Below, piece by piece: positions 6,456 to 26,588 of a stretch of DNA of 32,000 nucleotides (position 1 is the first letter of the stretch; every line of letters starts with the position of its first letter). The notes under the pieces are model-generated. The model saw only the letters and a program-made list of their open reading frames with translations, was not told where the DNA came from and did not search any database. The stretch is from a virus: IMG/VR virus record IMGVR_UViG_3300031576_000027, positions 46,962 to 78,961 of that record. One strand, written 5' to 3'. The translations under genes and the position numbers were made by a program.

Positions 6456-6685
6456 GCATGCCGATGGACCGACAGCGCCGCTACTACCTGCGGCACGACC
6501 TGGGCTGGGACATCCCGCACGAACGCGCGGTGTCGGGCGCGCGAGAACGCGCAGAACAGGACGAGGCGCGCAGGGTGGCCGGATCGTGCCTGTGCGGTTG
6601 CCCAAGGCTTGCGCATCCGCACGCGCGCGCATGCGGCATCTGCGGTGTCGGTCGCTGCCCAGCCTACATGGAGGCCGGCACGTGA
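6452..6685 (+). CDS. Small Cys/His-rich protein
   Basis: ATGA overlap at the start. The Cys/His stretch is CLCGCPRLAHPHARACGICGVGRCPAY. The stop shares a base with ATG 6685. Confidence 0.45.
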   Translation: MSMPMDRQRRYYLRHDLGWDIPHERAVSGARERAEQDEARRVAGSCLCGCPRLAHPHARACGICGVGRCPAYMEAGT

Positions 6686-7197
6686 TGTTCCGCGTCCTGA
6701 TCCCCGGCGATCCCGTCCCGCAGGGCCGCGGCCGGATCGTGCGCATCAAGGGCTTCGCGCGGATCGCGGACCCGTCCCGCAGTCGCAACTGGAAGGCGAT
6801 GGCGCAGTGGCACATGGCCAAGGCGATGTCGGACGCGCAGATCCGGGCGCCGCTGCAGGGCCCGCTGGAAGTCACGATCGAAGCCGTGCTGCGCTGCCCC
6901 AAGACCGACCACCGCAAGCGCGCACCACAGCCGCGGCGGTGGCACCAGGGGCGGCTCGACAGCGACAACCTGGCCAAGTCGGCTCTGGATGCCGGCAACG
7001 CCGTGCTGTGGATGGACGACGGCCAGGTGGCCGTGCTGCGTGTTCGCAAGATCATCGGACGCCAGGGCGAGGCGCCGCACCTGCTGATGCTGGTGCGCGA
7101 ACTGCCGGCCGTGCCGCACGACGAAGGTACGCCCAAGGAATGCAGCTGCAAGGAACGCCCGGGCGGATACTGCCCGGCACACGGGAGCCCACCCTGA
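6685..7197 (+). CDS. rusA: RusA-family Holliday junction resolvase (endodeoxyribonuclease RusA)
   Basis: IPGDPVPQGRGRIV...LEVTIEAVL...GRLDSDNLAKSALDAGNAVLWMDDGQVAVLRVRK shows the typical RusA motifs (PxxKxRPR-like, DxDN, DDxQ). The stop shares a base with ATG 7197. Confidence 0.8.
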   Translation: MFRVLIPGDPVPQGRGRIVRIKGFARIADPSRSRNWKAMAQWHMAKAMSDAQIRAPLQGPLEVTIEAVLRCPKTDHRKRAPQPRRWHQGRLDSDNLAKSALDAGNAVLWMDDGQVAVLRVRKIIGRQGEAPHLLMLVRELPAVPHDEGTPKECSCKERPGGYCPAHGSPP

Positions 7198-9518
7198 TGG
7201 CACAGACCGCACGCAAACGACAGCCCAAGGCAGCGCCACCACCGCCACCGGCATCGGTACCCACCGAGGTCATCGCGACGCAAGGCACGGAGGACCAGCC
7301 GCGCTGGACCGACTACATCCCGCTGTCGGGCCTGCGCCCGCACCCCAAGAACGAGGGCGTGCGCGATCACGACCTGGGCGTGATCCACGGGTCCATCGGG
7401 GAGCACGGCTACGGCAGTCCGATCGAGGTGGACGAACGGACGGGCCTGATGGTCGCCGGCCACGGCCGCCGCAAGGCGCTGCTGCAGATGCGCGACGCCA
7501 AACAGGACCCGCCGGACGGGGTGATCCGCGCGCCGGACGGCGACTGGATGGTGCCGGTTCAGCGCGGATGGCGCAGCCGGTCCGACGCCCAGGCCATGGC
7601 CTACCTCATTGTCAACAACCGCTCGCAGGAACTGGGCGGCTGGAAGGACGACGGGCTCGCGGAGGTGCTCCAGCAGTTGGCCCAGCAGGACGCCCTGATC
7701 GGAACGGGCTACAGCGCGGACGACGTCGCGGCGCTGCTGTCCCGCGTCGGCGGGCCGCCCAAGCTGGGCGCGCACGCCGGCAAGTTGCGCGAGAAGTTCC
7801 TGGTCCCCCCGTTCAGCGTCCTGGACGCCCGGCAGGGCTACTGGCGCGAGCGGCGGGAGGCCTGGATCAGCCTGGGCATCCAGTCCGAACTGGGCCGCGA
7901 CGCCAAGGCGTTCACGACGCAGGCGCAGATGGCCGACGGCAGCACCTTCTACGACTACACGGGCGTGTCCATCTTCGACCCGGTCCTGTGCGAACTGGTC
8001 TACCGGTGGTTCGCCCCGCCCGGCGCCGTCGTCCTGGATCCCTTCGCAGGCGGGTCGGTGCGCGGCGTCATCGCCGCGGCCTGCGGGCACCAGTACTGGG
8101 GCATCGACCTGCGGGCCGAGCAGGTCGCGGCCAACAAGGCCCAGTGGGGCAAAATCAAGCCCCTGGCCGCCGAGATCGCCCAGGCGCCGGTCGCCCAGGA
8201 TGCCACGGACAATGCCGTCCCGACTACGCCGATCGAGCGCCGCGGGCAAGTCTGGATCAAGCGCGACGACCTGTTCGCGATCGCCGGGGTCCGCGGCGGC
8301 AAGGTCCGCACGTGCTGGACGCTGGCCCAGGGCGCCAAGGGCCTGGTGACCGCCGGCAGTCGGCAGTCCCCCCAGGTCAACATCGTCGCCCACGTCGCCA
8401 AGCGCCTGGGCATCCCCTGCCGGGTCCATGTCCCAACCGGCAAGCCGACCCCGGAACTGCAGGCGGCGGCACAGGCCGGCGCCGACGTCGTGCCGCAGAC
8501 GCCAGGGCACAACAGCGTGATCATCAAGCGGGCCCGCGACGACGCCAAGGCGCGGGGCTGGCGCGAGATCCCGTTCGGGATGGAGTGCATCGAGGCCGTG
8601 GCGGCAACGTCCACCCAGGTGGCGGCGCTGCCAGACGGCTGCAAGCGGATCGTGGTGCCGGTCGGGTCCGGCATGACGCTGGCCGGGATCCTGACCGGCA
8701 TGCAGAAGGCCGGCGTCAGCCTGCCTGTGCTGGGGGTCGTCGTCGTGGCAGACCCGGCCGACCGCCTGGACAAGTGGGCCCCCAAGGGGTGGCGGCAGCG
8801 GGTCAAGTTGGTGCCGGCGGGCCAGGACTACCACGACCCGGCGCCGGTCACGGTCCTGGACGGGCTGCAGCTGGATCCCATCTACGAGTCCAAGTGCATC
8901 CCGCATCTCAAGCCGGACGATCTGCTGTGGTGCGTCGGCATCCGGCAGACGGCGGACGCGCGCGCAGCCGGGCAGGCACCGGTCCACGACCCCACCTGGA
9001 TCGTCGGGGCGTCCCCCGGCGCGGTTGGCGCCAAGGGGATCCCGGACGCCGACCTGGTCTTCACCTGCCCGCCCTACCACGACCTGGAACGGTACAGCGA
9101 CGACCCGGCGGACCTGTCCGCCATGTCCTGGGACGACTTCCGGGACTTCTACCGGGAGACGATCGTGGTGGCGGCCGCGCGCCTCAAGCCCAACCGCTTC
9201 ATGGCGATCGTCGTGGGCGAGATCCGCGACGGGCGCGGGCTGTACCGCAACCTGGTCGGCCTGACGATCGACGCGGCGATCGCGGCCGGGCTGGCCTACT
9301 ACAACGAGGCCATCCTGGTAACGCCGATCGGATCCCTGCCGCGGCGCATGGGACCGTTCAGCGCCTACCGGAAACTAGGGAAGACCCATCAGCAACTGCT
9401 GGTCTTCTACAAGGGCACCGACCCCAAGAAGCTGCAGCCGATCTTCGGGGACGTCGTGGTCCCGGAGGAGGCGTTGGTGCTGGCCGCGGTCGCCCAGGGG
9501 GACAAGGCAGATGGCTGA
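7197..9518 (+). CDS. ParB-like N-terminal domain + N6/N4 DNA methyltransferase, interrupted by an inserted PLP-dependent (ACC deaminase / D-cysteine desulfhydrase-like, fold type II) domain
   Basis: The ParB domain is LRPHPKNEG...GHGRRKA (about 7300-7560). MTase motif I is DPFAGGS (8037-8057). The PLP domain spans about 8218-8950: IERRGQVWIKRDDLF..RGGKVRT (Lys codon 8301-8303), VTAGSRQSPQ and VPVGSGMTLAG (8664-8678). MTase motif IV is TCPPY (9063-9077). The C-terminus is ...NEAILVT...RKLGKTHQQLLVFYKG. Confidence 0.8.
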   Translation: MAQTARKRQPKAAPPPPPASVPTEVIATQGTEDQPRWTDYIPLSGLRPHPKNEGVRDHDLGVIHGSIGEHGYGSPIEVDERTGLMVAGHGRRKALLQMRDAKQDPPDGVIRAPDGDWMVPVQRGWRSRSDAQAMAYLIVNNRSQELGGWKDDGLAEVLQQLAQQDALIGTGYSADDVAALLSRVGGPPKLGAHAGKLREKFLVPPFSVLDARQGYWRERREAWISLGIQSELGRDAKAFTTQAQMADGSTFYDYTGVSIFDPVLCELVYRWFAPPGAVVLDPFAGGSVRGVIAAACGHQYWGIDLRAEQVAANKAQWGKIKPLAAEIAQAPVAQDATDNAVPTTPIERRGQVWIKRDDLFAIAGVRGGKVRTCWTLAQGAKGLVTAGSRQSPQVNIVAHVAKRLGIPCRVHVPTGKPTPELQAAAQAGADVVPQTPGHNSVIIKRARDDAKARGWREIPFGMECIEAVAATSTQVAALPDGCKRIVVPVGSGMTLAGILTGMQKAGVSLPVLGVVVVADPADRLDKWAPKGWRQRVKLVPAGQDYHDPAPVTVLDGLQLDPIYESKCIPHLKPDDLLWCVGIRQTADARAAGQAPVHDPTWIVGASPGAVGAKGIPDADLVFTCPPYHDLERYSDDPADLSAMSWDDFRDFYRETIVVAAARLKPNRFMAIVVGEIRDGRGLYRNLVGLTIDAAIAAGLAYYNEAILVTPIGSLPRRMGPFSAYRKLGKTHQQLLVFYKGTDPKKLQPIFGDVVVPEEALVLAAVAQGDKADG

Positions 9519-10166: not shown

Positions 10167-10405
10167 CCGACACGCCTGCCGTCATCCAAGGCAAGCTCAC
10201 ACTGACGATCACCGTGGTGGCCCTGCTCTGTGTGGCCCAAGCTGCCTGCACCGTCATGCTGTCCATGCGGTGCGCGGACCTGCGCCGGGACCTGGCGGCA
10301 ACCAGAGCCGAAATGCGCCAGCAACAGCACGCGGCGGCCGAGGTGGACCGCAAGCTCCAGGAGGACGTCAGCGCCCTCCGGTACCTGCAGCGCGGGAGGC
10401 TCTGA
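10163..10405 (+). CDS. Small membrane protein with a coiled-coil tail
   Basis: The TM-like segment is LTLTITVVALLCVAQAACTVML. ATGA overlap at the start. The stop TGA 10403-10405 shares a base with the next ATG. Confidence 0.5.
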   Translation: MTDTPAVIQGKLTLTITVVALLCVAQAACTVMLSMRCADLRRDLAATRAEMRQQQHAAAEVDRKLQEDVSALRYLQRGRL

Positions 10406-10779
10406 TGTACCAGCCAGCGAACCGGAAGGTGCTCAACCTGCACGTGTCGGCCGACGAGCACGACCACGTCAAGCGGATGGCCCAGCGGCGCGCCGTGACC
10501 ATGACCGGCGTGATCCGTCGGATGATCCAGCGGGACATGCTGCGGGCGGCAAAGGACGAAGGCACCGGCACCGCGCACCGTGCCGTCCAAGCGCTGGCCG
10601 GCAAGCAGCCCGTTGCCCGCGAGTGGCACCCGGGGTTTCCGCTAGTCGTCACCCCCCACCCGGCCGTGATCGACCAGATTGACCGCCTGTTGGACACCGG
10701 GTTGTGGGGCAGGACGCGCGACGACGTCGCAGAAAACTTGATCACGTGGGCGCTGAGGCAGCATACTGGTAACCAGTAG
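10405..10779 (+). CDS. Ribbon-helix-helix (CopG-like) DNA-binding protein
   Basis: KVLNLHVSADEHDHVKRMAQRRAVTMTGVIRRMIQRDM is a typical RHH beta-strand/helix/helix. The stop codon lies inside the inverted repeat ggtaaccagtagttacc (10768-10784). Confidence 0.6.
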   Translation: MYQPANRKVLNLHVSADEHDHVKRMAQRRAVTMTGVIRRMIQRDMLRAAKDEGTGTAHRAVQALAGKQPVAREWHPGFPLVVTPHPAVIDQIDRLLDTGLWGRTRDDVAENLITWALRQHTGNQ

Positions 10780-13416: not shown

Positions 13417-13633
13417 CCACCTGCGACTGGTCCAGGACAGCGACGCGGCGATCGCGGCCGGACTGCGCGCGCTGGGCCGCGCCATCGAGATGGAGACGCA
13501 CTACCAGACGGACGCGCGGGCGGCATGGCTGCGCAAGCCACGGCCCTGGTGGCTGCAGATGATCGAGCGCGCCTGCTGGTGGCGCCGGCACCCGCGGGCC
13601 AACTTCTACTGCTGGGATGATCAACCGTGGTGA
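13403..13633 (+). CDS. Hypothetical Trp-rich protein
   Basis: RBS gaggagggccgacgATG. The stop overlaps the next GTG start region. Confidence 0.5.
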   Translation: MARRDHLRLVQDSDAAIAAGLRALGRAIEMETHYQTDARAAWLRKPRPWWLQMIERACWWRRHPRANFYCWDDQPW

Positions 13634-13959
13634 CCCAGCAACTGCCCATGCGAACGCGGGTAGACAGCGTCCTGGCCGTCCTGGCCATGGGCGGCCGCCA
13701 GGTGCCGACCGTGTACGTGCATCGGGTCCTGTGCCCGGTCTGCAGGGTGCGGAGAAAAGGCGTGACGGAAGCGCGGCCCCTCATGATGGTCACGATGGCC
13801 GCCGTGCGCGTGACCAAGGTGCGGCGCGGCCGGCATGTGCGTGTCCACTACTACGGCCCCGTGCCCAAGCATCTGCGGAAGGGTGGCAAGGGCCCGTGTC
13901 CGACGTCGGGCCTTGCGCACCGCTGGCACGCCGACTACCCGTGGGGACGGACGTGGTGA
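13627..13959 (+). CDS. Zinc-ribbon paralog family member 1
   Basis: The three family elements are SVLAVLAMGGRQVP, LCPVC and VRVHYYGPVPKH (see findings). Confidence 0.5.
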   Translation: MVTQQLPMRTRVDSVLAVLAMGGRQVPTVYVHRVLCPVCRVRRKGVTEARPLMMVTMAAVRVTKVRRGRHVRVHYYGPVPKHLRKGGKGPCPTSGLAHRWHADYPWGRTW

Positions 13960-14204
13960 GGCCGATCTTCACGGCATGGCTCTGCGGCCGGCACACGGCC
14001 TACAAGCTGCGCCTGGGCGACAGGCGCCGCACTTGGTCCGTGCTGTCGGCGCTGCAACCCAAGGATTGGGGAGCCTACGCGCCGGATCAGGACCAGGTCG
14101 CCTGGGCGGCCATGTCCGCGTTGGGCGCCACCGATCTGCCGGCGCACACCGGCACGGCAGACTGCCCCTGCGGCTACGCCTGCAGGGAGGACGGGACCGC
14201 ATGA
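13953..14204 (+). CDS. Hypothetical protein (possible divergent relative of the paralog family)
   Basis: GTG 13953/13956 overlaps the upstream stop. The C-terminus is AAMSALGATDLPAHTGTADCPCGYAC. Confidence 0.4.
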   Translation: MVRPIFTAWLCGRHTAYKLRLGDRRRTWSVLSALQPKDWGAYAPDQDQVAWAAMSALGATDLPAHTGTADCPCGYACREDGTA

Positions 14205-14491
14205 ACCGCGAGGCCCTGGCCGTGTTCCTGTCGATGACCGGCATGCCCATGACGCTGGGACACCGGATGTTCACGTGCAAGCACTGTGGGAGCAGCCAGT
14301 TTGCTTTCCCGCAGGCCATGGACATGGACGGCACCGACGTCATCTACGTGGCCCGGATCGGGCCGCACACGAAGATCCAGCATGACCGGACGTCTACGAA
14401 TTATCCAGACATCACGTCGTGGAACCACTGCGGCGGCTGCGAGATCGACGTGCGCTGGCCAATCACTGACAAGTGGCCGGGCGAGACATGA
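14201..14491 (+). CDS. Zinc-ribbon paralog family member 2
   Basis: ATGA overlap at the start. The family elements are EALAVFLSMTGMPM, TCKHC, VIYVARIGPH and HCGGC. Confidence 0.55.
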   Translation: MNREALAVFLSMTGMPMTLGHRMFTCKHCGSSQFAFPQAMDMDGTDVIYVARIGPHTKIQHDRTSTNYPDITSWNHCGGCEIDVRWPITDKWPGET

Positions 14492-14796
14492 CCGACGACG
14501 TGGCCGCCGCGCTGGTTCATCTTGCGATGCTGGGCGTGGACATCCCCCGCACGACGATGACGCCCTGGAAGAAGTGCCAGGTCTGCAACGAGGGCTTCCC
14601 GGGGCCGCCGTGGGTCCGGTCGCGCATGGAAATCGTGGGGGTCTATCTGCGGGTCCGGTACGTCAGCATCGTGCCGCAACACCCACGCGCGCCCGGGCCC
14701 GTCTGCCCAGGCGGGCTGGCGATGACATGGTCGATCGTGGACTACAACTGGCAGCAGGGAGGACAGGTCACGTGGGAAGACAACGCCAAGCCGTAG
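14488..14796 (+). CDS. Zinc-ribbon paralog family member 3
   Basis: ATGA overlap at the start. The family elements are AAALVHLAMLGVDIP, KCQVC and LRVRYVSIVPQH. Confidence 0.55.
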   Translation: MTDDVAAALVHLAMLGVDIPRTTMTPWKKCQVCNEGFPGPPWVRSRMEIVGVYLRVRYVSIVPQHPRAPGPVCPGGLAMTWSIVDYNWQQGGQVTWEDNAKP

Positions 14797-15596
14797 CTGC
14801 AGCCCCGGTGGCCGATCTGGCTGCCCGCGCGGCGTTGTTCGCGCTGGCCCATCCGGCCTACGCATCGCGCGGCGCCGGGCTGTCCCACATCCAGACCACC
14901 CAGGGCGGGTGCCTGTACGGCATGTGGGTCATGGGCAACGACTACCGCAACCGATCCCGGCTGTACGGAGCCTATCCACCCGGCTACCTGCGGCGCGTCT
15001 TCGCCTTGTTCCCTGACAAGCAGCGCATCCTGCACGTGTTCAGCGGCAGCCTGACCCGGACGCAGCTGGACGAGGACTGGCTGGCGGTCAACGGTGGACC
15101 CGGGCGCCTGGAGGACGACGTGGCGGGGCAGCGATCGCGCGTGTGGGATCTGCCGGCCCAGGTGCGCTTCGACAGTGGCGCCTGCAAGGACGCCATGGCT
15201 GCCGGCCCGGATGTCATCGGCAACGCCCAGCAGCTGGCCGCCGTCCTGGCCGGCCAGAACAAGAACAAGCGCACCTGGAGGGGTGAGACGTGGCAGGGGC
15301 CGTGGATCGAAGAACCGCCGAGCCCTCCGGTGGCCTCCGGTTACGACCTGGTGCTGGCCGATCCGCCCTACACCAAGGACGACGCCAAACGGTACGGGCA
15401 ACCGCTGCCCAACAAGCGACTGGTCATCGACCAGATCCACCAGGTGACGGCGACGGGCGCGCATCTGGTGTGGCTCGACACGGCTTGGCCGATGCACAGC
15501 AAGTCGCAGTGGCGGACCTGCGGGCTGATCGGGATGGTCCGATCCACCCAGCACCGGGTCCGATTGGTGACGATCATGGAGAGGGTGGGCGCATGA
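14772..15596 (+). CDS. DNA methyltransferase (amino-MTase, motif I then DPPY)
   Basis: GTG 14772 follows gggagga. The sequence reads GMWVMGNDYRNRSRLYGAYPPGYLRRVFALFPDKQRILHVFSGS...YDLVLADPPYTKDDAKRY...HLVWLD. Confidence 0.75.
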   Translation: MGRQRQAVAAAPVADLAARAALFALAHPAYASRGAGLSHIQTTQGGCLYGMWVMGNDYRNRSRLYGAYPPGYLRRVFALFPDKQRILHVFSGSLTRTQLDEDWLAVNGGPGRLEDDVAGQRSRVWDLPAQVRFDSGACKDAMAAGPDVIGNAQQLAAVLAGQNKNKRTWRGETWQGPWIEEPPSPPVASGYDLVLADPPYTKDDAKRYGQPLPNKRLVIDQIHQVTATGAHLVWLDTAWPMHSKSQWRTCGLIGMVRSTQHRVRLVTIMERVGA

Positions 15597-15841
15597 AGAT
15601 CCACGACCTGAAATGCTGGCCGGCGCCGTGGCAGGCAACCGAGCGCGACTGGAAGACCCACGAGGTCCGCCAGGACGACCGTGGTTTCGAGGAGGGCCAC
15701 GTGCTGCTGCTGCGCGAATGGGATCCGGGGTCCAAAGCCTACACGGGCCGGCAGCTGATGCGGCGCGTCCAGTACGTCAGCCGGGGGCCCGACTGGGGGC
15801 TGCCGCACGACATGGTGGTCATGTCGCTGGGGGCCGTATGA
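15593..15841 (+). CDS. DUF3850 (ASCH/PUA-like fold) protein
   Basis: MKIHDLKCWPAPWQATERDWKTHEVRQDDRGFEEGHVLLLREWDPGSKAYTGRQL matches the DUF3850 signature. There are ATGA overlaps at both ends. Confidence 0.75.
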   Translation: MKIHDLKCWPAPWQATERDWKTHEVRQDDRGFEEGHVLLLREWDPGSKAYTGRQLMRRVQYVSRGPDWGLPHDMVVMSLGAV

Positions 15842-16026
15842 CCAAAAAACGGGCCAAGCAGATCAAGCGGCGCCCGGCCCGCCCGCAGCGCACGCAATGG
15901 GACATGGACCACGCCGACGCGATCGCGGCCTTCGATCATTGCCCATGCTGGTACGATGGGAAGGTCTGCTGCGGATGCGGCGAGGAGAAGCCCTTGTGCC
16001 AGTGGACGGTAGGTCGCCATGGCTGA
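15838..16026 (+). CDS. Small Cys-rich protein
   Basis: ATGA overlap at the start. The Cys-rich stretch is CPCWYDGKVCCGCGEEKPLC. Confidence 0.45.
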   Translation: MTKKRAKQIKRRPARPQRTQWDMDHADAIAAFDHCPCWYDGKVCCGCGEEKPLCQWTVGRHG

Positions 16027-16360
16027 CAGGCCGACCATGGATCGCGTGCGCGCGCGCGACGTCGTGCCGCACTGCTGGGGGTTGTGGTCCAGCGTCATGG
16101 ACGACAAGCCCTTCGTGAACCCGATCTGCCACGTCAAGTGGTCCGAGGACGGGTCCCGCCTCTGGTTCATGCTGGAGAGCTTCAACTTCTACAGCGCCAC
16201 GCCGGATCAGATGCTGGACCTGGTCCCGATCCAACCTGGCAAGTACATCGACATGGCCGCGGTCCGCGCCGAGCATGCCGACGTGATCAAGGCCCGCCCG
16301 CAGCCCAGCCAGCCCCCGGGCGTCTGCCCGCACTGCAACGGGACGGGCAAGACGGCATGA
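16019..16360 (+). CDS. Hypothetical protein ending in a DnaJ-type CxxCxGxG motif
   Basis: ATG 16019 overlaps the upstream 3' end. The C-terminus is CPHCNGTG. There is an ATGA overlap with the next gene. Confidence 0.5.
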   Translation: MADRPTMDRVRARDVVPHCWGLWSSVMDDKPFVNPICHVKWSEDGSRLWFMLESFNFYSATPDQMLDLVPIQPGKYIDMAAVRAEHADVIKARPQPSQPPGVCPHCNGTGKTA

Positions 16361-16731
16361 CGTCCGAGTCCCTGCTGTCGATGCTGGCGCTGTCGGGCTA
16401 CCCGGCACCGCGCGAGGTCCCGTGCGCGCGGCGTTGTCCGCGCTGCCGGTGCCACCAGCCCCACATCGTCCAGCTGCAGACCCACCGGATCGAGCGTGGG
16501 TTGCTGATCTTGCACTACACCGGGCAGACGATCTGCTGCGTCTGCAGCAATCCCGCCCCGGACGTCACGCGCCACGTCAGGCGGCGCTACGAAGTGGACG
16601 CGCTGTTGGAGGTATGGGGCAAGGCGCTGACCCGGCGCAAGGCCGGCGCCGAATCCTTTGATGCGATCGCCGGCCTCTCGCTGGATCCGTGGCGGGCGGC
16701 CCAGGTGGACCGTAGCCGGGCCCGCCCATGA
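16357..16731 (+). CDS. Zinc-ribbon paralog family member 4
   Basis: The family elements are SLLSMLALSGYPAP, RCPRC and LILHYTGQTICCVC. There are ATGA overlaps at both ends. Confidence 0.55.
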   Translation: MTSESLLSMLALSGYPAPREVPCARRCPRCRCHQPHIVQLQTHRIERGLLILHYTGQTICCVCSNPAPDVTRHVRRRYEVDALLEVWGKALTRRKAGAESFDAIAGLSLDPWRAAQVDRSRARP

Positions 16732-17162
16732 TCGAGTCCTACACGATGGGCATGGTGTCGCATCAGACGGCGGATCCGCGTGGCGTCCGCCTCCTTAGGA
16801 CCACCCACAAGGACCGCAAGGCGACACGCGCCTGGTTGACCTTGGCTGGCCTGCCGCTCAAGGTGCTGAACAACGCCAACTGCGGGGCCTGTCTGGTGTG
16901 GGGTCCGGCACCCCAACCGCGCGCGACAGCACCAAGGGCCCATGCCGCGACCGCGACCATGGAAGACGGGACCGTCCGGGTCAAGTACGTGGGTCGCGTG
17001 CCGCGCCACTACCGCCCGCTGATGCGGCAGGGCCTGCCGGTTGGGGACGCCCGCCTGGAGGCCGAGGGGCATGTCGCATGGGTGACGCGCCAGGAGCCAT
17101 GCCCGGGGGTCGGGGCCCAGGTCGTCCTGACGGTGGAGTACGTGCCGGTGGGCAAGCCGTGA
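16728..17162 (+). CDS. Zinc-ribbon paralog family member 5
   Basis: The family elements are RAWLTLAGLPL, NCGAC and VRVKYVGRVPRH. Confidence 0.55.
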   Translation: MIESYTMGMVSHQTADPRGVRLLRTTHKDRKATRAWLTLAGLPLKVLNNANCGACLVWGPAPQPRATAPRAHAATATMEDGTVRVKYVGRVPRHYRPLMRQGLPVGDARLEAEGHVAWVTRQEPCPGVGAQVVLTVEYVPVGKP

Positions 17163-17184
17163 CCACGATCGACTGGATCGGACC

Positions 17185-17535
17185 ATGACACGGCCAGACC
17201 GGCGGCGCGCCCAGCGGATCGACCAGGCGTACGCCCGCATCCCGGACATCCGGTGCCAGGGCCTGTGCGCCGAAAGCTGCGGGCCCATTGCCATGTCCAG
17301 GGTCGAGTGGGAGCGGATCTGCGAGCGACTGGGCTACGCCCCCAAGGGCCAGTCCTTGTCCTGCCCGATGCTGGCCGACGCCCGCTGCACGGTCTACGAC
17401 ATCCGGCCGGCGATCTGCCGCCTGTGGGGGGTCGCGGATGAGATGCCATGCCCTTGGGGCTGCGTCCCTGACAGGCAGCTGACCCGGCAGCTGGCGTACA
17501 GCGTCCTGGACGCCATCAGGAGGGCCGGGGAATGA
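17185..17535 (+). CDS. YkgJ-family (UPF0153, CxxCxxCC-type) cysteine-cluster protein
   Basis: The sequence reads CQGLCAESCGP...CPMLADARCTVYDIRPAICRLWG...CPWGC. Confidence 0.6.
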   Translation: MTRPDRRRAQRIDQAYARIPDIRCQGLCAESCGPIAMSRVEWERICERLGYAPKGQSLSCPMLADARCTVYDIRPAICRLWGVADEMPCPWGCVPDRQLTRQLAYSVLDAIRRAGE

Positions 17536-17951
17536 CCACCAGGTTGCAGGATGCGGAGCGCGGGGTCGTCCAGGCGGCGATCGCGGCCGAGGGGATCTGG
17601 CTGGCCTCCGGGGGTGTCAACTGGCTCAAGACCCCGTCCATCCGGGCCATTCGCGACGCCCTGGCGCGCTTGCGGGCCGTCAAGGACCAGTACGGGCCGG
17701 ACAACGATTACGCCACCAGCCTAGAGGCCGAGGTAGCCAGCCTCCGGGCAGCCGGGGAACTGGCGCTGTGGTCCCTGATGCGCCATGCCGACCAGGGGCG
17801 AGGGGATGCCGTGGTCGCCTTGCGCGAGGCCCTGGGGCCCTGCCCAGGCTGCGGCGGGCGCGGGACCTACAGCACCGGGACCTTCGGGGCCGGAGGGTCC
17901 AGCACCTGTGACCAATGCCACGGCCTAGGCACGCGGAAGGCTAAACCATGA
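17532..17951 (+). CDS. Hypothetical protein with two DnaJ-type CxxCxGxG zinc-finger motifs
   Basis: ATGA overlap at the start. The motifs are CPGCGGRG and CDQCHGLG near the C-terminus. Confidence 0.55.
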   Translation: MTTRLQDAERGVVQAAIAAEGIWLASGGVNWLKTPSIRAIRDALARLRAVKDQYGPDNDYATSLEAEVASLRAAGELALWSLMRHADQGRGDAVVALREALGPCPGCGGRGTYSTGTFGAGGSSTCDQCHGLGTRKAKP

Positions 17952-18355
17952 GCCGCATCATCAGGTTGGCCCCGTTGACCGAGGACACGCTGGCCCTGCT
18001 GGCGCTCAGGGGGATTCCCAGGCCGCCCCCATCGTCGGTCCAGACTACCTGCGAAGTCTGTGGTTCGCAGGGCCGGGTCATCCGTCTGCACCGGGTCATT
18101 CTGACGTCGTCAGCCAACGGCAAGCCCAGCTGCACCGCGGTCTACACGAACCTCGTCTACTGCGGCCAGTGCCAGGGCAGGGCACGGCAGCGCCAAGTGC
18201 TGGTAGCGCACGGCAACACATGGGCCGTAGCGGCGTACGACCTGCGGCGGGCCGTCGCCATGGCTGGGCGCCGAGGCGGCAAGGCGTGGATCCAGCAGCA
18301 GGTCACCGAGGCGCTGGGCGGCATCGTCGTCCGCGTCCGAAAGGGCCGCAAGTGA
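17948..18355 (+). CDS. Zinc-ribbon paralog family member 6
   Basis: The family elements are DTLALLALRGIPRP, TCEVC and TAVYTNLVYCGQC. ATGA overlap at the start. Confidence 0.55.
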   Translation: MSRIIRLAPLTEDTLALLALRGIPRPPPSSVQTTCEVCGSQGRVIRLHRVILTSSANGKPSCTAVYTNLVYCGQCQGRARQRQVLVAHGNTWAVAAYDLRRAVAMAGRRGGKAWIQQQVTEALGGIVVRVRKGRK

Positions 18356-18786
18356 GCCACCACGTCGCCACCAGCTACGGGCCGCGGTTGTCCGACCGCG
18401 TCGCCAGTCTCATGGCCCTGGCCGGCCTACCACACCCACCGGCCACCAAGGGCTTGCAGGTCTGGTGCGGCAGGTGTCCTGCGTCCATGCAGCAACGGGG
18501 GCCGGTCAAGCGCCGTCGCGGGCTGATCCAGCGGACCATTCGCCTGACCAAGGTGCGCATCTGGTCGTCCACAGCGGACGGGACATACGCCTTGGCCTAC
18601 TACCGCGGCCCTGTCGTAGTCTGCTCCGAGTGCGGGGTTGCTAGTGGCGTCCGGCGCCCGATCTACACCACCAAGAACACTGCGCACACCGACCAGTACC
18701 TAGCCGCGGCCGGGCCAGATGGTTGGCACATCCTGGACCACGGCGACCGCAGGACCAGGCGACAGCGCAAGGGACAGAGCCAGTGA
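18352..18786 (+). CDS. Zinc-ribbon paralog family member 7
   Basis: The family elements are RVASLMALAGLPHP, WCGRC and ALAYYRGPVVVCSEC. GTGA overlap at the start. Confidence 0.55.
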   Translation: MSHHVATSYGPRLSDRVASLMALAGLPHPPATKGLQVWCGRCPASMQQRGPVKRRRGLIQRTIRLTKVRIWSSTADGTYALAYYRGPVVVCSECGVASGVRRPIYTTKNTAHTDQYLAAAGPDGWHILDHGDRRTRRQRKGQSQ

Positions 18787-18843: not shown

Positions 18844-19362
18844 GTGAGCAGATTCACCGCAGGCTTGCGCGCGCACGTGACAGACAGGCATGATGGAGGC
18901 GCTGTGGCAAAACCGACAGGCAACACCAAGGTCCCAGGCGTGCTACCGCACGGGCGACCGACCAAGTTGACCCAGGAAGTCCAGGACCGTTTCTTGGAAG
19001 CCCTGCGCGTCGGCAATTTCTACGAAGCCTGCTGCGGTTACGCCGGGATCGACTACGGGACCCTGCGGCAGTGGATGATCAAGGGAGGTCAGGGCAAGCA
19101 GCCCTATGCCAATTTTCGGCAGGCGGTACTCAAGGCCGAGGCTGACGCCGAGGCCAGGATCGTCGCCAACTGGCAGCAGCACATCCCGTCGGACTGGCGC
19201 GCGGCCCGCGACTTCCTCGGACGCCGGCACGCCGATCGGTGGGGCCCACGGGACAAGGTGGAACACAGCGGGCCTGGTGGCGCCCCGCTGCAGATCGTCT
19301 ACACCCAGGACTGGAGATCCCAGCAGGCGGCAGATGCTGAAGCTGGCGAGGAGCAGGACTGA
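18844..19362 (+). CDS. terS: Terminase small subunit (start codon uncertain: GTG 18844 or GTG 18877)
   Basis: GRPTKLTQEVQDRFLEALRVGNFYEACCGYAGIDYGTLRQWMIKG...FRQAVLKAEADAEARIV is the typical TerS HTH N-terminal pattern. It sits upstream of the packaging/head module. Confidence 0.7.
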   Translation: MSRFTAGLRAHVTDRHDGGAVAKPTGNTKVPGVLPHGRPTKLTQEVQDRFLEALRVGNFYEACCGYAGIDYGTLRQWMIKGGQGKQPYANFRQAVLKAEADAEARIVANWQQHIPSDWRAARDFLGRRHADRWGPRDKVEHSGPGGAPLQIVYTQDWRSQQAADAEAGEEQD

Positions 19363-19652
19363 TGGCGACCGAGACTACGACCGGCGGGTTGCGGTGCGGC
19401 AATTGCGGCCGTGCCGTCAACGTGCTGACGCAGGTGCCGGGGTTGCCAGGGTGGTGCGACGACTGCCTGATCGCAACGTCAGTTCCGCTCTACCCGCCGT
19501 CCTTGTTGCCGATGCCTCAACTGCCGACGAATGACCTGGCGTGGCCCAGGCTGCAACCGGACGACCGCCTGCGCCGGATTGAGGACCGCCTGGACATGCT
19601 GGCGGCGCAGCTGCAGCGGATCCTGGACGCGCTGGTCGGGGGCAAGGCGTGA
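19362..19652 (+). CDS. Hypothetical zinc-ribbon + coiled-coil protein
   Basis: The start shares a base with the terS stop. The sequence contains CGNC...CDDC, then RLRRIEDRLDMLAAQLQRILDAL. Confidence 0.5.
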   Translation: MATETTTGGLRCGNCGRAVNVLTQVPGLPGWCDDCLIATSVPLYPPSLLPMPQLPTNDLAWPRLQPDDRLRRIEDRLDMLAAQLQRILDALVGGKA

Positions 19653-20026
19653 CGGTCTGCACACACTGCGGCGGATCCGGCTGGGCGCCAGGGCGCGAGA
19701 TGGACGACGCATGCCCGCACTGCAGCGCGGGGCCAGGGCTGATCGCGCGCGAGGCCGCCTGGAACAAGACGCATCAACCGCGACGGGTGGGCGGCGATCC
19801 GCAGATGCCAGACTCGATGGAGGCGCCGGACGATCCCGCGGCGATCACGCAGCCCGGCGTCGTGGTCGGGCCGCAGCCGGCCATGCACGTCGCGCTGGGC
19901 GCGGACAGCCTGCGCCTGTCCTTCGATCAACCGGCGCAGTACGTCGAGATCAACCAGCAGGCCGCCATGGGCCTGGCCATGCGGATCCTGGATCACTTCC
20001 GGCCGCGGATCGTGCCTCCGTCGTGA
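19649..20026 (+). CDS. Hypothetical protein with an N-terminal CxxCxGxG / CxxC zinc motif
   Basis: GTGA overlap at the start. The motifs are CTHCGGSG...CPHC. Confidence 0.5.
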   Translation: MTVCTHCGGSGWAPGREMDDACPHCSAGPGLIAREAAWNKTHQPRRVGGDPQMPDSMEAPDDPAAITQPGVVVGPQPAMHVALGADSLRLSFDQPAQYVEINQQAAMGLAMRILDHFRPRIVPPS

Positions 20027-20214: not shown

Positions 20215-20447
20215 TCGAGACGTGGACCGTGTGGCCGCGGATCATGTGGCTGACAGCCCCCATCATGTTCATGCCATGGGTCATCCGCGTCGTTCCATGG
20301 TTGTGGCCGCTGCAGGTCGCAATACCGATCCTCGTGCTCGCGTTGGCAGCGGCGACCAGTTGGCGGATCCGCCGCGAGCTACGCGCGATCCAGGCCATGC
20401 ACGCGCTACGAGGATCGGGACGCAGCGGGAACCGAATCCCGCCGTGA
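20181..20447 (+). CDS. Small membrane protein (two TM helices)
   Basis: RBS aggaggcccgATG. The hydrophobic segments are IMWLTAPIMFMPWVIRVVPWLW and VAIPILVLALAAATSW. Confidence 0.55.
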   Translation: MHRLRATVERLIETWTVWPRIMWLTAPIMFMPWVIRVVPWLWPLQVAIPILVLALAAATSWRIRRELRAIQAMHALRGSGRSGNRIPP

Positions 20448-20629
20448 CCGACGACGACAAGATCGAGGACGCAGCCAAGGTGCTGCACGACATGCAGGCC
20501 GACGGGCGGCGTTGCTGCTTCTGCGGCAAGCCAAAGCGCGAGGTCAAGCGCCTGGTGACCAACGGGGCCCACACGATCTGCAACGAATGCATCGGGCTGT
20601 GCGTGCTGCTACTACAGCAGGCCGAGTAG
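20444..20629 (+). CDS. Stand-alone ClpX-type C4 zinc-finger (ZBD-like) protein
   Basis: CCFCGKPKREVKRLVTNGAHTICNECIGLCVLLL aligns with the ClpX N-terminus C-x-FCGK-x3-EV-x-KL-x7-IC-x-EC-x2-LC. GTGA overlap at the start. Confidence 0.7.
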   Translation: MTDDDKIEDAAKVLHDMQADGRRCCFCGKPKREVKRLVTNGAHTICNECIGLCVLLLQQAE

Positions 20630-20638
20630 ACTGGCGGC

Positions 20639-22120
20639 ATGCCAGGACCCGTGGAGCCCAACGACCAGCGCGGCGCAATCGTCGCGGAGACATCGGACGG
20701 CGACGTCCAGGTCTACGGGCCCGATGGTGAGCAGATCGAAGCCGAGACGCCGGAAGCAGCCAGGGTCATCGGCGGGCTGTCCGGCCGGCGCATCATCCTG
20801 CCGGCACCACTGCCGCACCAGGTCCCGGTGCTGCTGCATCCTGCCCGCAACAAGGTGCTGACAGCTGGACGCCGCTGGGGAAAGACCCTGACCGGCCTCA
20901 TCTGCGTGATCGAGGGACACGGCGCGCACCGCGGGCAGCACATCGGCGCGCTGCAGGGTGGCAACATCTGGTGGGTCACCACCACCCACGGCGTGGCCAA
21001 GGCCATCTGGCGCGACCTCAAGGCGGCCCTGCGCGAGGGATGGGTCAGCAAGTCAGAAGTGGACAAGCGGATCGTCCTGCCCGGCGGCGGCGCGATCACG
21101 GTCAAATCGGCCGACAACCCGGACAGTCTGCGCGGCGAGGGTCTGGACGGCGTGGTCATAGACGAGGCCGCGCACTGCAGCCGGGACGCCTGGGAACAGG
21201 GTGTGCGCCCTGCGCTGGTGGACCGCCAGGGCTGGGCGTTCTTCATCAGCAGCCCCAAGGGTCGCAACTGGTTCTGGCAGCTGTACGAGCAGGCTGGGCG
21301 CCTGCCCAACTGGGCGCGCTGGCAGCGGCCGTCCGCGGACAACCCGACCTTTCCGCAGTCCGAGGTGGACAAGGCGCAGCAGGAATCCCCGCCCAAAATC
21401 TTCCGCCAGGAGTACCTGGCCCAGTTCGAAGCGCCCGGCGGCGCCTTGTGCCAGCAGTCCTGGTTCCAGTACTTCACCATCGAGAACCCGGCCGGCGCGG
21501 CCAAGACCACCCAGCAGGCGCGGGACGTCGTCAAGGCGTTGGGCGCCAACCAGGGTGAGCCCGAGGCGTTGGGCGTAACCTTCGTCTGCGTCAAGACGGA
21601 CGGCAGCATCAAGCGAATCCCGCGCAACACCTGCCGCGTCTTCCAGACCGTTGACCTGGCAGCCAGCGTCAAGGCATCCGCGGACTACACCGTGGTAAGC
21701 ACCTGGGCTGCGACCCCCGACCTGGACCTGCTGCTGCTGGACCGCGTGCGTGGGCGTTTCGAGGGGCCAGACCAACCGGCGCTGATCACGGGCGCCTGGG
21801 CCAAGTGGTCGCCTGCCATGATCGCGATCGAACAAGTCGGGTACCAGTTGGCGCTGATCCAGGCCATGGTCCGACAGGGGCTGCCAATCATGGCGGTGCG
21901 CCCCGACGCCGACAAGGTCAGCCGGTTCATCCCGTTCTGCACCCGCATGAAGGCCGGCGCCGTCTACTGGCCCGCCGGCATGCCATGGCTGCACGACTGG
22001 GAGGACGAACTGGTGTCGTTCCCGGACGGCGAGCACGACGACCAGGTGGACACCGCCAGCCTGTCCGTCTGCCGCGAAGTGCTGGGCGCTGCGCGCAAGT
22101 TCACAGTCCGCCGCAGTTGA
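20639..22120 (+). CDS. terL: Terminase large subunit
   Basis: Walker A-like LTAGRRWGKT and Walker B-like LDGVVIDEAAH are present. The C-terminal nuclease-like region is VDLAAS...DYTV...VGYQLALIQ...DGEHDDQVDT. The gene sits immediately upstream of the portal. Confidence 0.9.
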   Translation: MPGPVEPNDQRGAIVAETSDGDVQVYGPDGEQIEAETPEAARVIGGLSGRRIILPAPLPHQVPVLLHPARNKVLTAGRRWGKTLTGLICVIEGHGAHRGQHIGALQGGNIWWVTTTHGVAKAIWRDLKAALREGWVSKSEVDKRIVLPGGGAITVKSADNPDSLRGEGLDGVVIDEAAHCSRDAWEQGVRPALVDRQGWAFFISSPKGRNWFWQLYEQAGRLPNWARWQRPSADNPTFPQSEVDKAQQESPPKIFRQEYLAQFEAPGGALCQQSWFQYFTIENPAGAAKTTQQARDVVKALGANQGEPEALGVTFVCVKTDGSIKRIPRNTCRVFQTVDLAASVKASADYTVVSTWAATPDLDLLLLDRVRGRFEGPDQPALITGAWAKWSPAMIAIEQVGYQLALIQAMVRQGLPIMAVRPDADKVSRFIPFCTRMKAGAVYWPAGMPWLHDWEDELVSFPDGEHDDQVDTASLSVCREVLGAARKFTVRRS

Positions 22121-22135: not shown

Positions 22136-24334
22136 ATGGGCGTGCTGGACAACCTGCGGTCGCTGTTCGGTGGTGGGGCATCAAACGGCGCAGGTGCGCG
22201 GCCCGTGGGCGCGACGGAGCGGACGTACGAAGGGCTGCGCAGTCGGATCAGCAAGTCGGCCGGCGACGCACAGCCGGCGTCGCGTCAGCTGCCGGACGAG
22301 TTCGCGACCCTCTACGCGGCGGGCATGGCCATCGAGCCGCCGTACGACCCGGAGCGGCTGCTGGTAGCTGCGGAGACAAACGAGGTCCACAGCGCCTGCC
22401 TGTTGGCCAAGGCGACGGACAGCGTTGGGCGCGGCTGGGAGTTCACGTCCGACGACGAGCAGGCAGCAGCCGAACCAAAGGACGCCGTGGTCGCGGCGCT
22501 GGAGGACATCTGCCCGGACTACACCTTCCAGGAACTGCTGCTGCAGGCGGCCTGGGAACTGGTGACGATCGGGTACTCCGGGTGGGAGGTAGTGCGCAAC
22601 CAGGACAAGACGATCGGCGCGGCCTACCCGATCCCGGCCCACACCCTGCGCGCCACGCGGTCCCCGGACATCTTCGTCCAGGTGCGCAACGCACAGGTCC
22701 GGTACTTCAAGCGGTTTGGAGTCGAGCGCACGCTGGACGCGATCACTGGCGAGTGGTTGTCGGATCAGGCCGCCGCGGCACTGACGCAGGACGCCCTGGA
22801 CCAGCCGCAGGGCAGCGTGTTCGGGATGCCGTCCGGTCTGGCCAGGCAGCCCGATCATGCCCCCGCCAGCGAGTTGATCACCTTCCGCCGCTACAGCCCG
22901 CGGTCCACGTTCTACGGGATGCTGGACTACATCGCCGGCATGCCGACCCTGGCCGAGTACGCGGCCAATCGGGACTACAACATCAGCTTCTACGAAACGG
23001 CCGGCGTCATGTCCAAGTTGGTCTTCCTGTCGTCGGACGTGCCCATCCCTGAGGTGGTCAACGAGATCGACAAGACCCTCAAGGACGCGCGCGGACGGCA
23101 GCACACCAACATGGTCGCGGAGCTTCCGGGCACGGCAAAGGTCCAGGTGGAGGATCTGGCGGTCGCCCCGCGCGAGCAGGGCTTCAAGGAGCGCCGGTTG
23201 GCGCTGGTCAAGTCCATCATGGTGGCCCACAGCGTCCCGCCCTACCGGATCGGCTACGCCGAACTGGGATCGCTGGGCGGATCCGCGGCGTCCGAGATGA
23301 TGAAGGCGTACCGGCACGGCGTGGTGGAGCCGATCCAGACGACGATCGAGCACCGCCTGGGCAAGACGCTGTTCGGTCCCGCCGGCTACAACCTGCAGGG
23401 CTGGGCCTTCACGCTGGCCGACCTGGACTGGGAGGAGACGGAACTGTCCCTCAAGATCGCGACCGAGTCCGTCAAGCTGGCGATCCTGTCCCCCAACGAG
23501 GCGCGGGCGGAACTGGGCCGCGACCCGGACGACGACCCCAACATGGACCGGAAGTACATGAACGGCCAGCCCATCGACACGGGCCTGGGCGCGCGGTCCG
23601 CGGAGGAGGTCGTGCGCACGCTGCGCGGGGAGGTCGCGCGCGCCATCCAGTCCGGCAAGCCCAAGCCACAGCAGCCGCAGCCGCTGCCGGTGGACACGGA
23701 GGTCCAGGTGCCGGCGGCCGCCAAGGCGCAGGCCAAGACCAACGGCAAGGCGCCGCTCAAGCTGCCGGCCAAGGTCGCCAAGGACGATCGGCCGCTAAAC
23801 CCGCAGGTCCCGACGTTCGGGCAGCCCGGCGCGAAGGTCGTCCTGGTCGGCCTGTGCCCGGGGAGTCAGGACGTCGATGCCGGCAGTCCGATGTCGGGCT
23901 ACGAACTGGACACCCTGGTGCACCGCTATCTGGACCCGCTGGGCCTGGGGCTGAACGAGGAGGACGTGGCGATCGTCATGGCCGTGCCTGAGATCACCCG
24001 GGACATCGTGGGCGAGCCGTGCAACCCGACCGACGCCGACCTGAACCGCTGGCAGCCGTGGCTGCACGGCGAGATCCGGCGCCTGGGCCCCGGCCTGGTC
24101 GTGGCGCTGGGTGACCTGCCGCGGCGGGCGCTGGGTGAACTGGGGCACGCCACCGTGATCCCGCCCGCACAGGCCCACGCCAAGCCGGAACTGGCCGATA
24201 CCCTCACGCGCCAGCTGGACGAAGTCCGCGGGATGCTGACTGAGCGCAAGGCGCGCGAGATGCTGGGGCACGGCCCACTCGGGAAGCGGGTCCGCGTGCT
24301 GGCCAACGGCAATGACGTGGACTCGCAGCACTAA
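22136..24334 (+). CDS. Portal protein fused to a C-terminal uracil-DNA-glycosylase-superfamily-like domain
   Basis: The portal core spans about 22136-23560 (YFKRFG..., FYGMLDYIAGMPTLAEYAANRDYNISFYETAG, VPPYRIGY...). A Pro/Gln/Lys/Ala-rich linker spans about 23560-23800. The UDG-like part spans about 23801-24334: VVLVGLCPGSQDVDAGSPMSGYELDTL...CNPTDADLNRWQPWLHGEIRRLGPGLVVALGDL. Confidence 0.8.
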   Translation: MGVLDNLRSLFGGGASNGAGARPVGATERTYEGLRSRISKSAGDAQPASRQLPDEFATLYAAGMAIEPPYDPERLLVAAETNEVHSACLLAKATDSVGRGWEFTSDDEQAAAEPKDAVVAALEDICPDYTFQELLLQAAWELVTIGYSGWEVVRNQDKTIGAAYPIPAHTLRATRSPDIFVQVRNAQVRYFKRFGVERTLDAITGEWLSDQAAAALTQDALDQPQGSVFGMPSGLARQPDHAPASELITFRRYSPRSTFYGMLDYIAGMPTLAEYAANRDYNISFYETAGVMSKLVFLSSDVPIPEVVNEIDKTLKDARGRQHTNMVAELPGTAKVQVEDLAVAPREQGFKERRLALVKSIMVAHSVPPYRIGYAELGSLGGSAASEMMKAYRHGVVEPIQTTIEHRLGKTLFGPAGYNLQGWAFTLADLDWEETELSLKIATESVKLAILSPNEARAELGRDPDDDPNMDRKYMNGQPIDTGLGARSAEEVVRTLRGEVARAIQSGKPKPQQPQPLPVDTEVQVPAAAKAQAKTNGKAPLKLPAKVAKDDRPLNPQVPTFGQPGAKVVLVGLCPGSQDVDAGSPMSGYELDTLVHRYLDPLGLGLNEEDVAIVMAVPEITRDIVGEPCNPTDADLNRWQPWLHGEIRRLGPGLVVALGDLPRRALGELGHATVIPPAQAHAKPELADTLTRQLDEVRGMLTERKAREMLGHGPLGKRVRVLANGNDVDSQH

Positions 24335-25814: not shown

Positions 25815-26039
25815 ATGGGCATGGACATCCACCCCGAAGTCAAAATCAGCAAGATCGAGCGTATCAAGGGCGGCACGCGCATCGTCGTCAGCATCGACGT
25901 GGACGGCGCGGGCAATCCGATCCCCGCCTACCCGGTGACGCTGACGATCAAGGACAGCACCCTCAAGCGGCTGTGGGACAACATCCAGGCCGAGGCCGGA
26001 CGTGTGATCAAGCGGATCAAGAAGGCCGTCAAGAAGTAG
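25815..26039 (+). CDS. Small Lys/Ile-rich hypothetical protein
   Basis: ATG 25815 follows agagga. The composition (KISKIERIKGG...VIKRIKKAVKK) is visibly lower in GC than neighbouring genes. The gene is isolated, with non-coding DNA on both sides. Confidence 0.5.
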   Translation: MGMDIHPEVKISKIERIKGGTRIVVSIDVDGAGNPIPAYPVTLTIKDSTLKRLWDNIQAEAGRVIKRIKKAVKK

Positions 26040-26199
26040 TTGGCGGGGTCACCTGGAGTCGCGCCAGGTCTTCGCAGGTCATTAGTCTGCGCGTGCTGCT
26101 CCTACACCATGACCCCATGGTGGGCGCCCAGGGGCTTGCACCCCAGCGGACGTTGACGACCGGCGGGATCGTAGCCCCGCGCGCCCGGATGCGTGTGCG

Positions 26200-26577
26200 T
26201 TAGGACGTGGTCGCCTCCTTGACCAGCGGCAGCGCGCCGATGATCGACCGTAGCCGGCCGCCGTGCATGTCCCTGGTAGGGGCGATGCCGACGGCCATGA
26301 TCTGCCCGCACCAGGGCGGGTCGGGCTCGCAGATGGCGCGGTACGGGATGTCGGCCGCGCGCAACTGCTGCGCGATCGCGCGCAGGTTGGCGTCGTCTTG
26401 CGCGTGCAGACAGACGGCGTACGTCCCGCGCGGCAGATCACCGGGGGAAGATTCGCCCGCGGCGTGCACGATGTTGGCGGCCTGCAGTCCCCAGGGGAGG
26501 TCGCGGCGGACGATCACGTAGTGCCGCAGGGGCTGCGCTTCGACGGTTGCGTCAGGCGTCGCAATGCATGCCTGCAT
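26200..26577 (-). CDS. PTH2-superfamily (peptidyl-tRNA hydrolase 2-like) protein
   Basis: YVIVRRDLPWGLQAANIVHAA...AVCLHAQDDANLRAIAQQLRAADIPYRAICEPD...IMAVGIAP parallels PTH2 (VVR-x-DL...AAQ-x2-HAA...V-x-V...L-x3-A...G....DAG-x-T...T-x-L-x-IGP). Confidence 0.55.
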   Translation of the reverse strand: MQACIATPDATVEAQPLRHYVIVRRDLPWGLQAANIVHAAGESSPGDLPRGTYAVCLHAQDDANLRAIAQQLRAADIPYRAICEPDPPWCGQIMAVGIAPTRDMHGGRLRSIIGALPLVKEATTS

Positions 26578-26588
26578 GTTATGCAGGT

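Follow-up and report, generated by a model that had tools for sequence, protein, structure and literature searches.

The question raised by the 32,000-nt stretch of DNA analysed here (the window; positions 46,962 to 78,961 of IMG/VR virus record IMGVR_UViG_3300031576_000027) is whether seven small open reading frames (ORFs) situated between positions 13,627 and 18,786 encode a single family of proteins, and, if so, of what type and with what function. A sequence-only reading had taken the DNA to be of phage origin and the ORFs, of 96–144 aa, to represent a paralogous family of zinc-ribbon proteins with two subtypes. The DNA does belong to a phage genome, and every peptide that had been quoted for the seven ORFs was found where it had been placed. 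Comparison of the protein sequences indicates that the seven genes, referred to as members A to G, form one real paralogous family with two subtypes, the family being supported by pairwise, leave-one-out, cross-subtype and control statistics.

The seven genes and their common core

The members are listed below, with predicted isoelectric points (pI) and with subtypes named according to the second putative metal site described in the text.

13627..13959, + strand: member A, 110 aa, pI 11.7, C2H subtype
14201..14491, + strand: member B, 96 aa, pI 6.2, hybrid subtype, the weakest member
14488..14796, + strand: member C, 102 aa (ATG at 14488) or 107 aa (GTG at 14473), pI 7.7, C2H subtype
16357..16731, + strand: member D, 124 aa, pI 9.6, seven Cys, C4 subtype
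16728..17162, + strand: member E, 144 aa, pI 10.1, C2H subtype
17948..18355, + strand: member F, 135 aa, pI 11.4, C4 subtype
18352..18786, + strand: member G, 144 aa, pI 10.9, C4 subtype, the last gene before that of the small terminase

All seven proteins have a common core of approximately 90 residues. The core opens with an N-terminal amphipathic helix of the pattern phi-x-x-phi-phi-x-(L/M)-x-G-x(0-3)-P, where phi is a hydrophobic residue, and in 7/7 members a CxxC knuckle follows 8–11 residues past the Pro, just as had been described from the sequence alone. A linker of variable length (15–40 residues), often rich in Arg and Lys, leads from this knuckle to a beta-hairpin, the second strand of which is closed by the sole invariant Tyr. 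In members D, F and G the second site is another CxxC, 4–5 residues past the invariant Tyr; in A, C and E its place is taken by [IV]-P-x-H (V-P-x-H), and the same three proteins retain an R-V-[RHK]-Y strand; B has G-P-H, plus a CGGC motif 21 residues beyond. A third strand, which contains Trp, lies some 15–25 residues further on ('RWHADY', 'TWSIVDY' and 'TWAVAAY'). The four motifs keep identical order and spacing in 7/7 members, with about 15–37% identity among the copies, whereas the C-terminal extensions differ, those of D, F and G being rich in Arg and Lys. Five of the seven are strongly basic (pI 9.6–11.7, net charge +8 to +18), compared with a median pI of 8.2 for the other proteins of the window.

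The landmarks of the individual proteins, by residue number, are as follows. Member A has its helix, SVLAVLAMGGRQVP, at 14–27, CPVC at 36–39, VRVHYYGPVPKH at 71–82 and HRWHADY at 98–104. In member B, EALAVFLSMTGMP occupies residues 4–16 and is followed by CKHC (26–29), VIYVARIGPH (47–56), CGGC (77–80) and VRWPITD (84–90). Member C, in the 107-aa numbering, presents CQVC at 35–38, LRVRYVSIVPQH at 59–70 and MTWSIVDY at 84–91, and D has SLLSMLALSGYP at 5–16, CPRC at 27–30 and LILHYTGQTICCVC at 50–63. RAWLTLAGLP (34–43), CGAC (52–55) and VRVKYVGRVPRH (83–94) mark member E, while F contains DTLALLALRGIP (13–24), CEVC (35–38), TAVYTNLVYCGQC (63–75) and NTWAVAAY (90–97), and G contains RVASLMALAGLP (16–27), CGRC (39–42) and ALAYYRGPVVVCSEC (80–94).

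Relatedness was assessed firstly by pairwise Smith-Waterman scores, which were compared with those of 500 shuffles and expressed as z; the scale was calibrated on 601 pairs of unrelated proteins encoded by this genome. The strongest pairs were A–C (z = 12.3; C is the nearest paralogue of A, at 37% identity) and F–G (z = 8.3), followed by A–G (4.6), C–E (4.5), D–F (4.3), A–D (3.9), D–G (2.8), A–E (2.75) and B–E (2.7). Control pairs reached a maximum z of 4.9, and approximately 4% of them attained z ≥ 2.5. Since all of the other links (z ≤ 4.6) fall below the control maximum, only A–C and F–G are decisive when taken singly, and these two are unambiguous paralogue pairs. The remaining links, weak as individuals, are significant as a group: a z of at least 2.5 is attained by 8/21 family pairs (38%), and family pairs average 2.59 versus 0.19 for controls (Mann-Whitney p = 1e-6). 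The comparison with shuffled sequences that the sequence-only reading had called for thus succeeds outright for two pairs, and for the other links only collectively.

Profile-based evidence was obtained by leave-one-out searches, in which a hidden Markov model (HMM) built without one member was run against 964 composition-matched six-frame ORFs drawn from 51.5 kb of genome sequence. In 7/7 tests the omitted member was the top non-training match (of about 958), with E-values of 1.3e-5 for C, 3.7e-4 for D, 5.2e-4 for A, 2.2e-3 for G, 2.8e-3 for E, 0.01 for F and 0.13 for B. With a profile of A, C and E, the best matches outside the training set were F, D and B (B at E = 0.075), and a profile of D, F and G retrieved A. 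A motif expression, written post hoc, matches six members including B and no other ORF, against a mean of 0.17 matches in shuffled sequences. No further member was found by six-frame HMM search of the 51.5 kb examined. That only A–C and F–G are true pairs, the other proteins sharing a helix-GxP-CxxC look-alike by chance, composition or convergence, would fit with cross-links that stay beneath the maximum z of unrelated controls, with jackhmmer searches from single sequences that join only A–C and G–F, and with an hhalign comparison of the two subtype profiles that aligned only the 16-residue helix (probability 27%), but this is very improbable in the face of the leave-one-out result, of cross-subtype profiles whose top matches are family members only, of the 38% versus 4% of pairs at z ≥ 2.5, of the shared order and spacing of the motifs, and of the physical clustering of the genes.

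The proposal that the ORF at 13953 is a degenerate eighth member did not survive: there is no pairwise signal, and the family HMM scores it at E = 51. Its likeness to the family is limited to a 25-residue C-terminal look-alike, 'AAMSALGATDLP...CPC'. It does look truly coding, with a G+C content at third codon positions (GC3) of 0.89.

13953..14204 (alternative start at 13941), + strand: neighbouring gene X, 83–87 aa, not a family member

In all seven family frames GC3 is 0.83–0.89, versus 0.48–0.58 at second positions (GC2), which is the coding signature of this phage genome, and the starts of the members overlap preceding stop codons as ATGA or GTGA. For member C, the start at 14488 is favoured because its ATGA overlaps the stop of B. 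Public gene calls agree for 6/7 members, the exception being G, which is called from an ATG at 18487 as a protein of 99 aa that lacks the helix and first CxxC. The public start would open a 131-nt gap in an otherwise gap-free operon; the GTG at 18352 is better supported, because it overlaps the stop of F, the additional 135 nt (18352–18486) have a GC3 of 0.87 and the additional residues align with F. Correction of this 5'-truncated public call is a by-product of the analysis.

The genes had been described as scattered, but they are co-directional and stand in three adjacent groups (A-x-B-C, D-E and F-G), all inside the middle operon, with the family block ending 58 nt before the small terminase gene. 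Given this grouping and the 15–37% identity among copies, the seven would have arisen by old tandem duplications within the phage lineage. Duplication of a three-gene cassette, comprising a CxxCxGxG gene and two family members, was considered but is not supported, since the two CxxCxGxG genes concerned (16019 and 17532) are similar only at z = 3.35, which is within background. Scans for DNA repeats, promoters and terminators revealed no moron-like or mobile-element signature; the short DNA repeats D6 and D16 simply mirror protein similarity, D6 being an echo of the helix common to D and F.

Probable fold, putative metal site and searches for relatives

Structures were modelled with AlphaFold2, using the seven paralogues as the alignment, for the core of G and for full-length A. 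Confidence was low, with predicted local distance difference test (pLDDT) values of 53.6 for the G core and 58.7 for A, which makes the models too weak for use. Both of these low-confidence models have an N-terminal helix followed by three to four strands, which in A (pLDDT 58.7) comprise a helix at residues 12–21 and strands at 59–65, 70–78 and 96–105. Foldseek searches of PDB and BFVD with the models returned no match at E < 0.3, such that the structural check that had been proposed for the family did not place it in a known fold. Similarly, the best hit of a sequence-profile search of PDB was not significant (E = 0.16), and nor was that to the retroviral integrase N-terminal HHCC domain (E = 0.29), the two His residues of which are absent.

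Two CxxC knuckles set around a hairpin, the layout of a zinc ribbon, can be recognised in D, F and G; B also has two, the second being displaced. Strands are predicted between the knuckles, albeit in models of pLDDT 54–59. A, C and E have one CxxC and a single conserved His. Strictly, the term zinc ribbon is justified by motif only for D, F and G, and loosely for B. A helix-packed zinc ribbon is the probable fold of the core; the putative ligands would be the canonical C4 set in D, F and G, and the site would be altered in the C2H members A, C and E.

Various known Cys-containing domains were considered and rejected as relatives. No member has the CxxCxGxG motif of the DnaJ central domain (PF00684), and in Pfam they score no higher than 13.7 bits against it (E = 0.08), well short of the 32.7-bit cut-off. 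The Pfam families of Ogr/Delta, Lar and HNH endonucleases were not matched by any member at E ≤ 1, nor were their counterparts in PHROG or NCBIfam, and a conserved H-N-H is absent from the family alignment. The H-x3-C-x2-C signature of ZAS-type anti-sigma factors occurs only in A (H32-x3-C36-x2-C39); D has C-x3-C-x2-C, and the other five have neither form.

The sequence-only reading had not recognised the family, and nor did the searches conducted here. Scans of all members against Pfam, PHROG, NCBIfam and PADLOC produced nothing above noise (for PADLOC, no hit at E ≤ 1). When 5.8 billion clustered proteins were searched with a word-indexed profile method, only proteins of the same contig were returned. 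The core profile was also run with HMMER, in filter-only mode, over 1.84 billion representatives, and recovered the window's own seven proteins plus a single repeat adhesin of 4,048 aa; the latter is a repeat-summing artefact, because its score sums some 20 insignificant repeats (17–22 repeats, each of at most 13 bits, with per-domain E ≥ 1e4). There was nothing at E ≤ 1 in a tblastn search of 50,697 phage genomes. The seven-way alignment is too variable for pattern scanning, and degenerate patterns from the A+C and F+G alignments found no relatives in IMG/VR, JGI metagenome contigs or GTDB genomes. Six-frame HMM search of the three contigs with the closest large-terminase relatives likewise found no family member. 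No relative of the family was thus detected in the databases and collections covered.

The nearest precedent, by type as opposed to by sequence, is the approximately 35-copy zinc-ribbon expansion of Bacillus phage G, for whose products a role as specific transcription factors or as structural DNA-binding proteins has been proposed (Iyer et al. 2021, PMC7824862). In each case a small protein without assigned function, a zinc ribbon in phage G and a probable one here, is present in numerous diverged copies in one phage genome. Phage G, however, is a jumbo phage with about 35 copies, as opposed to seven in the approximately 79-kb genome considered here, no homology was detectable in the 1.84-billion-representative profile search or the tblastn search (E ≤ 1), and the N-terminal helix-GxP module and the C2H subtype belong to the present family. 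Classical C4 ribbons (TFIIS/Rpb9/TFIIB, Ogr/Delta and Lar), some of which have roles in phage regulation or anti-restriction, are also small, and the two CxxC knuckles that flank a predicted hairpin in D, F and G resemble theirs. They differ in that Pfam provides no match, the inter-knuckle spacing of the present family is long and variable (approximately 30–50 residues), an N-terminal helix is conserved, and three members carry V-P-x-H as the second knuckle. The DnaJ-type CxxCxGxG proteins (PF00684) encoded in the same operon are likewise small, Cys-rich phage proteins; the CxxC motifs of the family lack the GxG signature, and there is no significant similarity between the family and these neighbours. 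The seven proteins are best regarded as a new family of a familiar type, that of small phage proteins with zinc-ribbon-like features which have multiplied in one lineage. They provide a statistically supported example of a family expanded in one phage genome and undetected in the public collections searched. New mechanisms of host manipulation or regulation may be sought in families of this sort, which are also material for considering the birth of small metal-binding domains and ligand change (C4 versus C2H).

Possible functions

The reading favoured here, tentatively and at less than even strength, is that the members are small nucleic-acid-binding regulators or DNA/RNA-structuring proteins. 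The basis for this is their basic charge, the ribbon scaffold, the position of the genes and the phage G precedent. The proteins would act in a gene-specific manner as regulators, or would structure DNA or RNA, with specificities that have diverged among the copies; in the R-V-[RHK]-Y strand of A, C and E, basic residues would alternate onto one face, and the Arg/Lys-rich tails of D, F and G count on the same side. The start/stop overlaps, together with a lack of promoter-like or terminator-like sites in the 12–21 kb region (by sigma-70 promoter and terminator scans), support co-transcription. Expression would probably coincide with that of the remaining middle genes and shortly precede the onset of packaging and late functions. 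In many phages, late regulators are encoded at the site where this block ends, directly before the small terminase gene.

Several observations weigh against this reading. None of the members shows homology to a DNA- or RNA-binding family; two of them, B (pI 6.2) and C (pI 7.7), are not basic; arginine richness is partly a by-product of the 69% GC content; and no repeated operator-like DNA motif was found in 12–20 kb. The structural side is also vulnerable, given the low confidence of the models (pLDDT 54–59) without a Foldseek match at E < 0.3, and metal binding is putative, A, C and E showing no clear fourth ligand at a conserved position. Moreover, the connections by which the two firm pairs become one family do not, taken singly, rise above the background range.

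The main rival, which is possible and nearly as likely as nucleic-acid binding, is that the members are diversified protein-binding effectors for host takeover or anti-defence, in which the helix and ribbon serve as a scaffold while the variable linkers and C-terminal extensions bind different host targets, for example defence proteins, RNA polymerase or proteases. The sequence-only reading had suggested both an arsenal of this sort and a set of regulators with different targets. It would be in keeping with paralogues that are highly diverged, vary in linker length and tail and range in pI from 6.2 to 11.7, and with a family that is confined to this lineage without conserved homologues, lineage restriction being common for phage counter-defence genes. 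The genome is also rich in putative zinc-binding small proteins (CxxC in 23/63 proteins versus 5.5 expected), one of which is a stand-alone ClpX-type zinc finger, and several DNA-modification genes suggest heavy investment in host conflict. However, there was no PADLOC or other defence-related match, the genes lie in the middle operon beside the packaging genes as opposed to at the early end, all copies are old with no sign of recent diversification, and no target is indicated by any of the data.

It is rather unlikely, though worth setting out, that the family represents a fold-level novelty born in the phage lineage, in which a helix-capped ribbon was duplicated seven times, switched its site from C4 to C2H(+x) and became a multi-target toolkit. 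Each copy would then neutralise or redirect its own host factor, for instance RNA polymerase, a defence system or the ClpXP pathway, and the family would belong to an unusually zinc-protein-rich infection programme.

A role as late activators resembling Ogr of P2 or Delta of P4, in which F and G would be the most plausible candidates to contact host RNA polymerase and switch on the packaging and structural operon, is improbable. Ogr/Delta-type activators are small zinc-binding proteins, and the position directly upstream of the small terminase gene and the small, basic character of proteins with CxxC ... CxxC around a hairpin would be appropriate to one. Yet no Pfam match to Ogr_Delta or any other family was obtained at E ≤ 1, one switch does not need seven copies, the sigma-70 scan gave no promoter-like sites before the small terminase gene, and the inter-knuckle spacing of about 30–50 residues is longer than that of Ogr.

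Genome setting and other CxxC proteins

The window corresponds to positions 10,645–42,644 of ENA metagenome contig ERZ27247320:k141_3047319 (78,981 bp). A permuted Logan contig (SRR8536157_49209) overlaps both ends of the ENA contig. The phage genome is circularly assembled at approximately 78.8 kb (78,840 bp), because the redundancy between the permuted contigs, exactly 141 bp, matches the assembler k-mer size; it is probably complete at about 78,840 bp. The phage is new, siphovirus-like and only distantly related to known phages: a near-identity DNA search of the 50,697 phage records gave no match, the large terminase is at most 40% identical to any in that collection and at most 50% to any in the 5.8-billion-protein collection, and IMG/VR yielded no relatives for the portal protein. 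A probably complete genome of some 79 kb that is so distant from known phages, and in which more than a third of the window proteins carry CxxC, merits flagging in its own right.

Nearly all genes in 1–25.6 kb are on the + strand and are tightly packed. Many small genes without a family match fill the stretch between a ParB/DNA-methyltransferase fusion and the small terminase gene, and the second methyltransferase and DUF3850/ASCH-like genes lie among them. Portal, protease and capsid genes follow the large terminase gene, in that order.

1331–2200: O-like/DnaD-like replication initiator
6592–7197: RusA
7140–9518, + strand: ParB/DNA-methyltransferase fusion, 792 aa, with a ParB-like N-terminal domain
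14808–15596: second DNA methyltransferase
15593–15841: DUF3850/ASCH-like gene
18844–19362: small terminase (phrog_4102, E = 2.9e-26)
20651–22120: large terminase
22136–24334, + strand: portal protein, 732 aa (Phage_portal)
26041–26116, − strand: a single tRNA-Ile gene, with the unusual anticodon AAT, between a + strand gene (25815–26039) and a block of small minus-strand genes (26200–27937)

An internal region of the ParB/DNA-methyltransferase fusion matches profiles of enzymes dependent on pyridoxal phosphate (PALP, threonine-dehydratase-like), which is an unusual combination. Besides Phage_portal, a precomputed Pfam match of the portal protein is to UDG, the uracil-DNA glycosylase superfamily. 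Upstream of the window, at contig positions 1092–3797, a gene resembling those for 3'-phosphoadenosine-5'-phosphosulfate (PAPS) reductase is clustered with genes for a C5 DNA methylase and a ScoMcrA N-terminal (phosphorothioate-sensing) domain; this cluster, together with the two methyltransferases of the window, suggests extensive capacity for DNA modification or anti-restriction.

CxxC is over-represented in the window, where 23 of 63 proteins contain 32 such motifs, versus 5.5 ± 2.0 proteins and 6.2 ± 2.4 motifs in residue shuffles, and by this count the phage appears unusually rich in putative metal-binding small proteins. Those outside the family include the three DnaJ-type proteins that the sequence-only reading had noted nearby, which were confirmed as genes 16019, 17532 and 19649.

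16019–16360, + strand: DnaJ-type CxxCxGxG protein (CPHCNGTG), directly upstream of D-E
17185–17535, + strand: CxxCxxCC protein (PF03692, YkgJ-like; Pfam E = 1e-3), putative Fe/Zn-chelating, between E and F
17532–17951, + strand: DnaJ-type CxxCxGxG protein (CPGCGGRG and CDQCHGLG), directly upstream of F-G
19649–20026, + strand: DnaJ-type CxxCxGxG protein (CTHCGGSG)
20444–20629, + strand: stand-alone ClpX-type C4 zinc finger, 61 aa (PF06689, E = 2e-12), just upstream of the large terminase gene
26741–27178, − strand: CxxCxxCC protein (PF03692, YkgJ-like; weak Pfam match), putative Fe/Zn-chelating

The mutual similarity of the three CxxCxGxG proteins is within background. The ClpX-type zinc finger could, judging from its domain match, be a decoy or modulator of substrate or adaptor recognition by host ClpX. 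The two YkgJ-like proteins are paralogous (z = 4.3). Finally, the proteins encoded at 10405–10779 (+) and 27270–27455 (−) are locally similar (BLASTP E = 1.6e-4 in a search among the window proteins) and, with a weak RHH_1 Pfam match for the second, may represent another small paralogue pair, of ribbon-helix-helix regulators.

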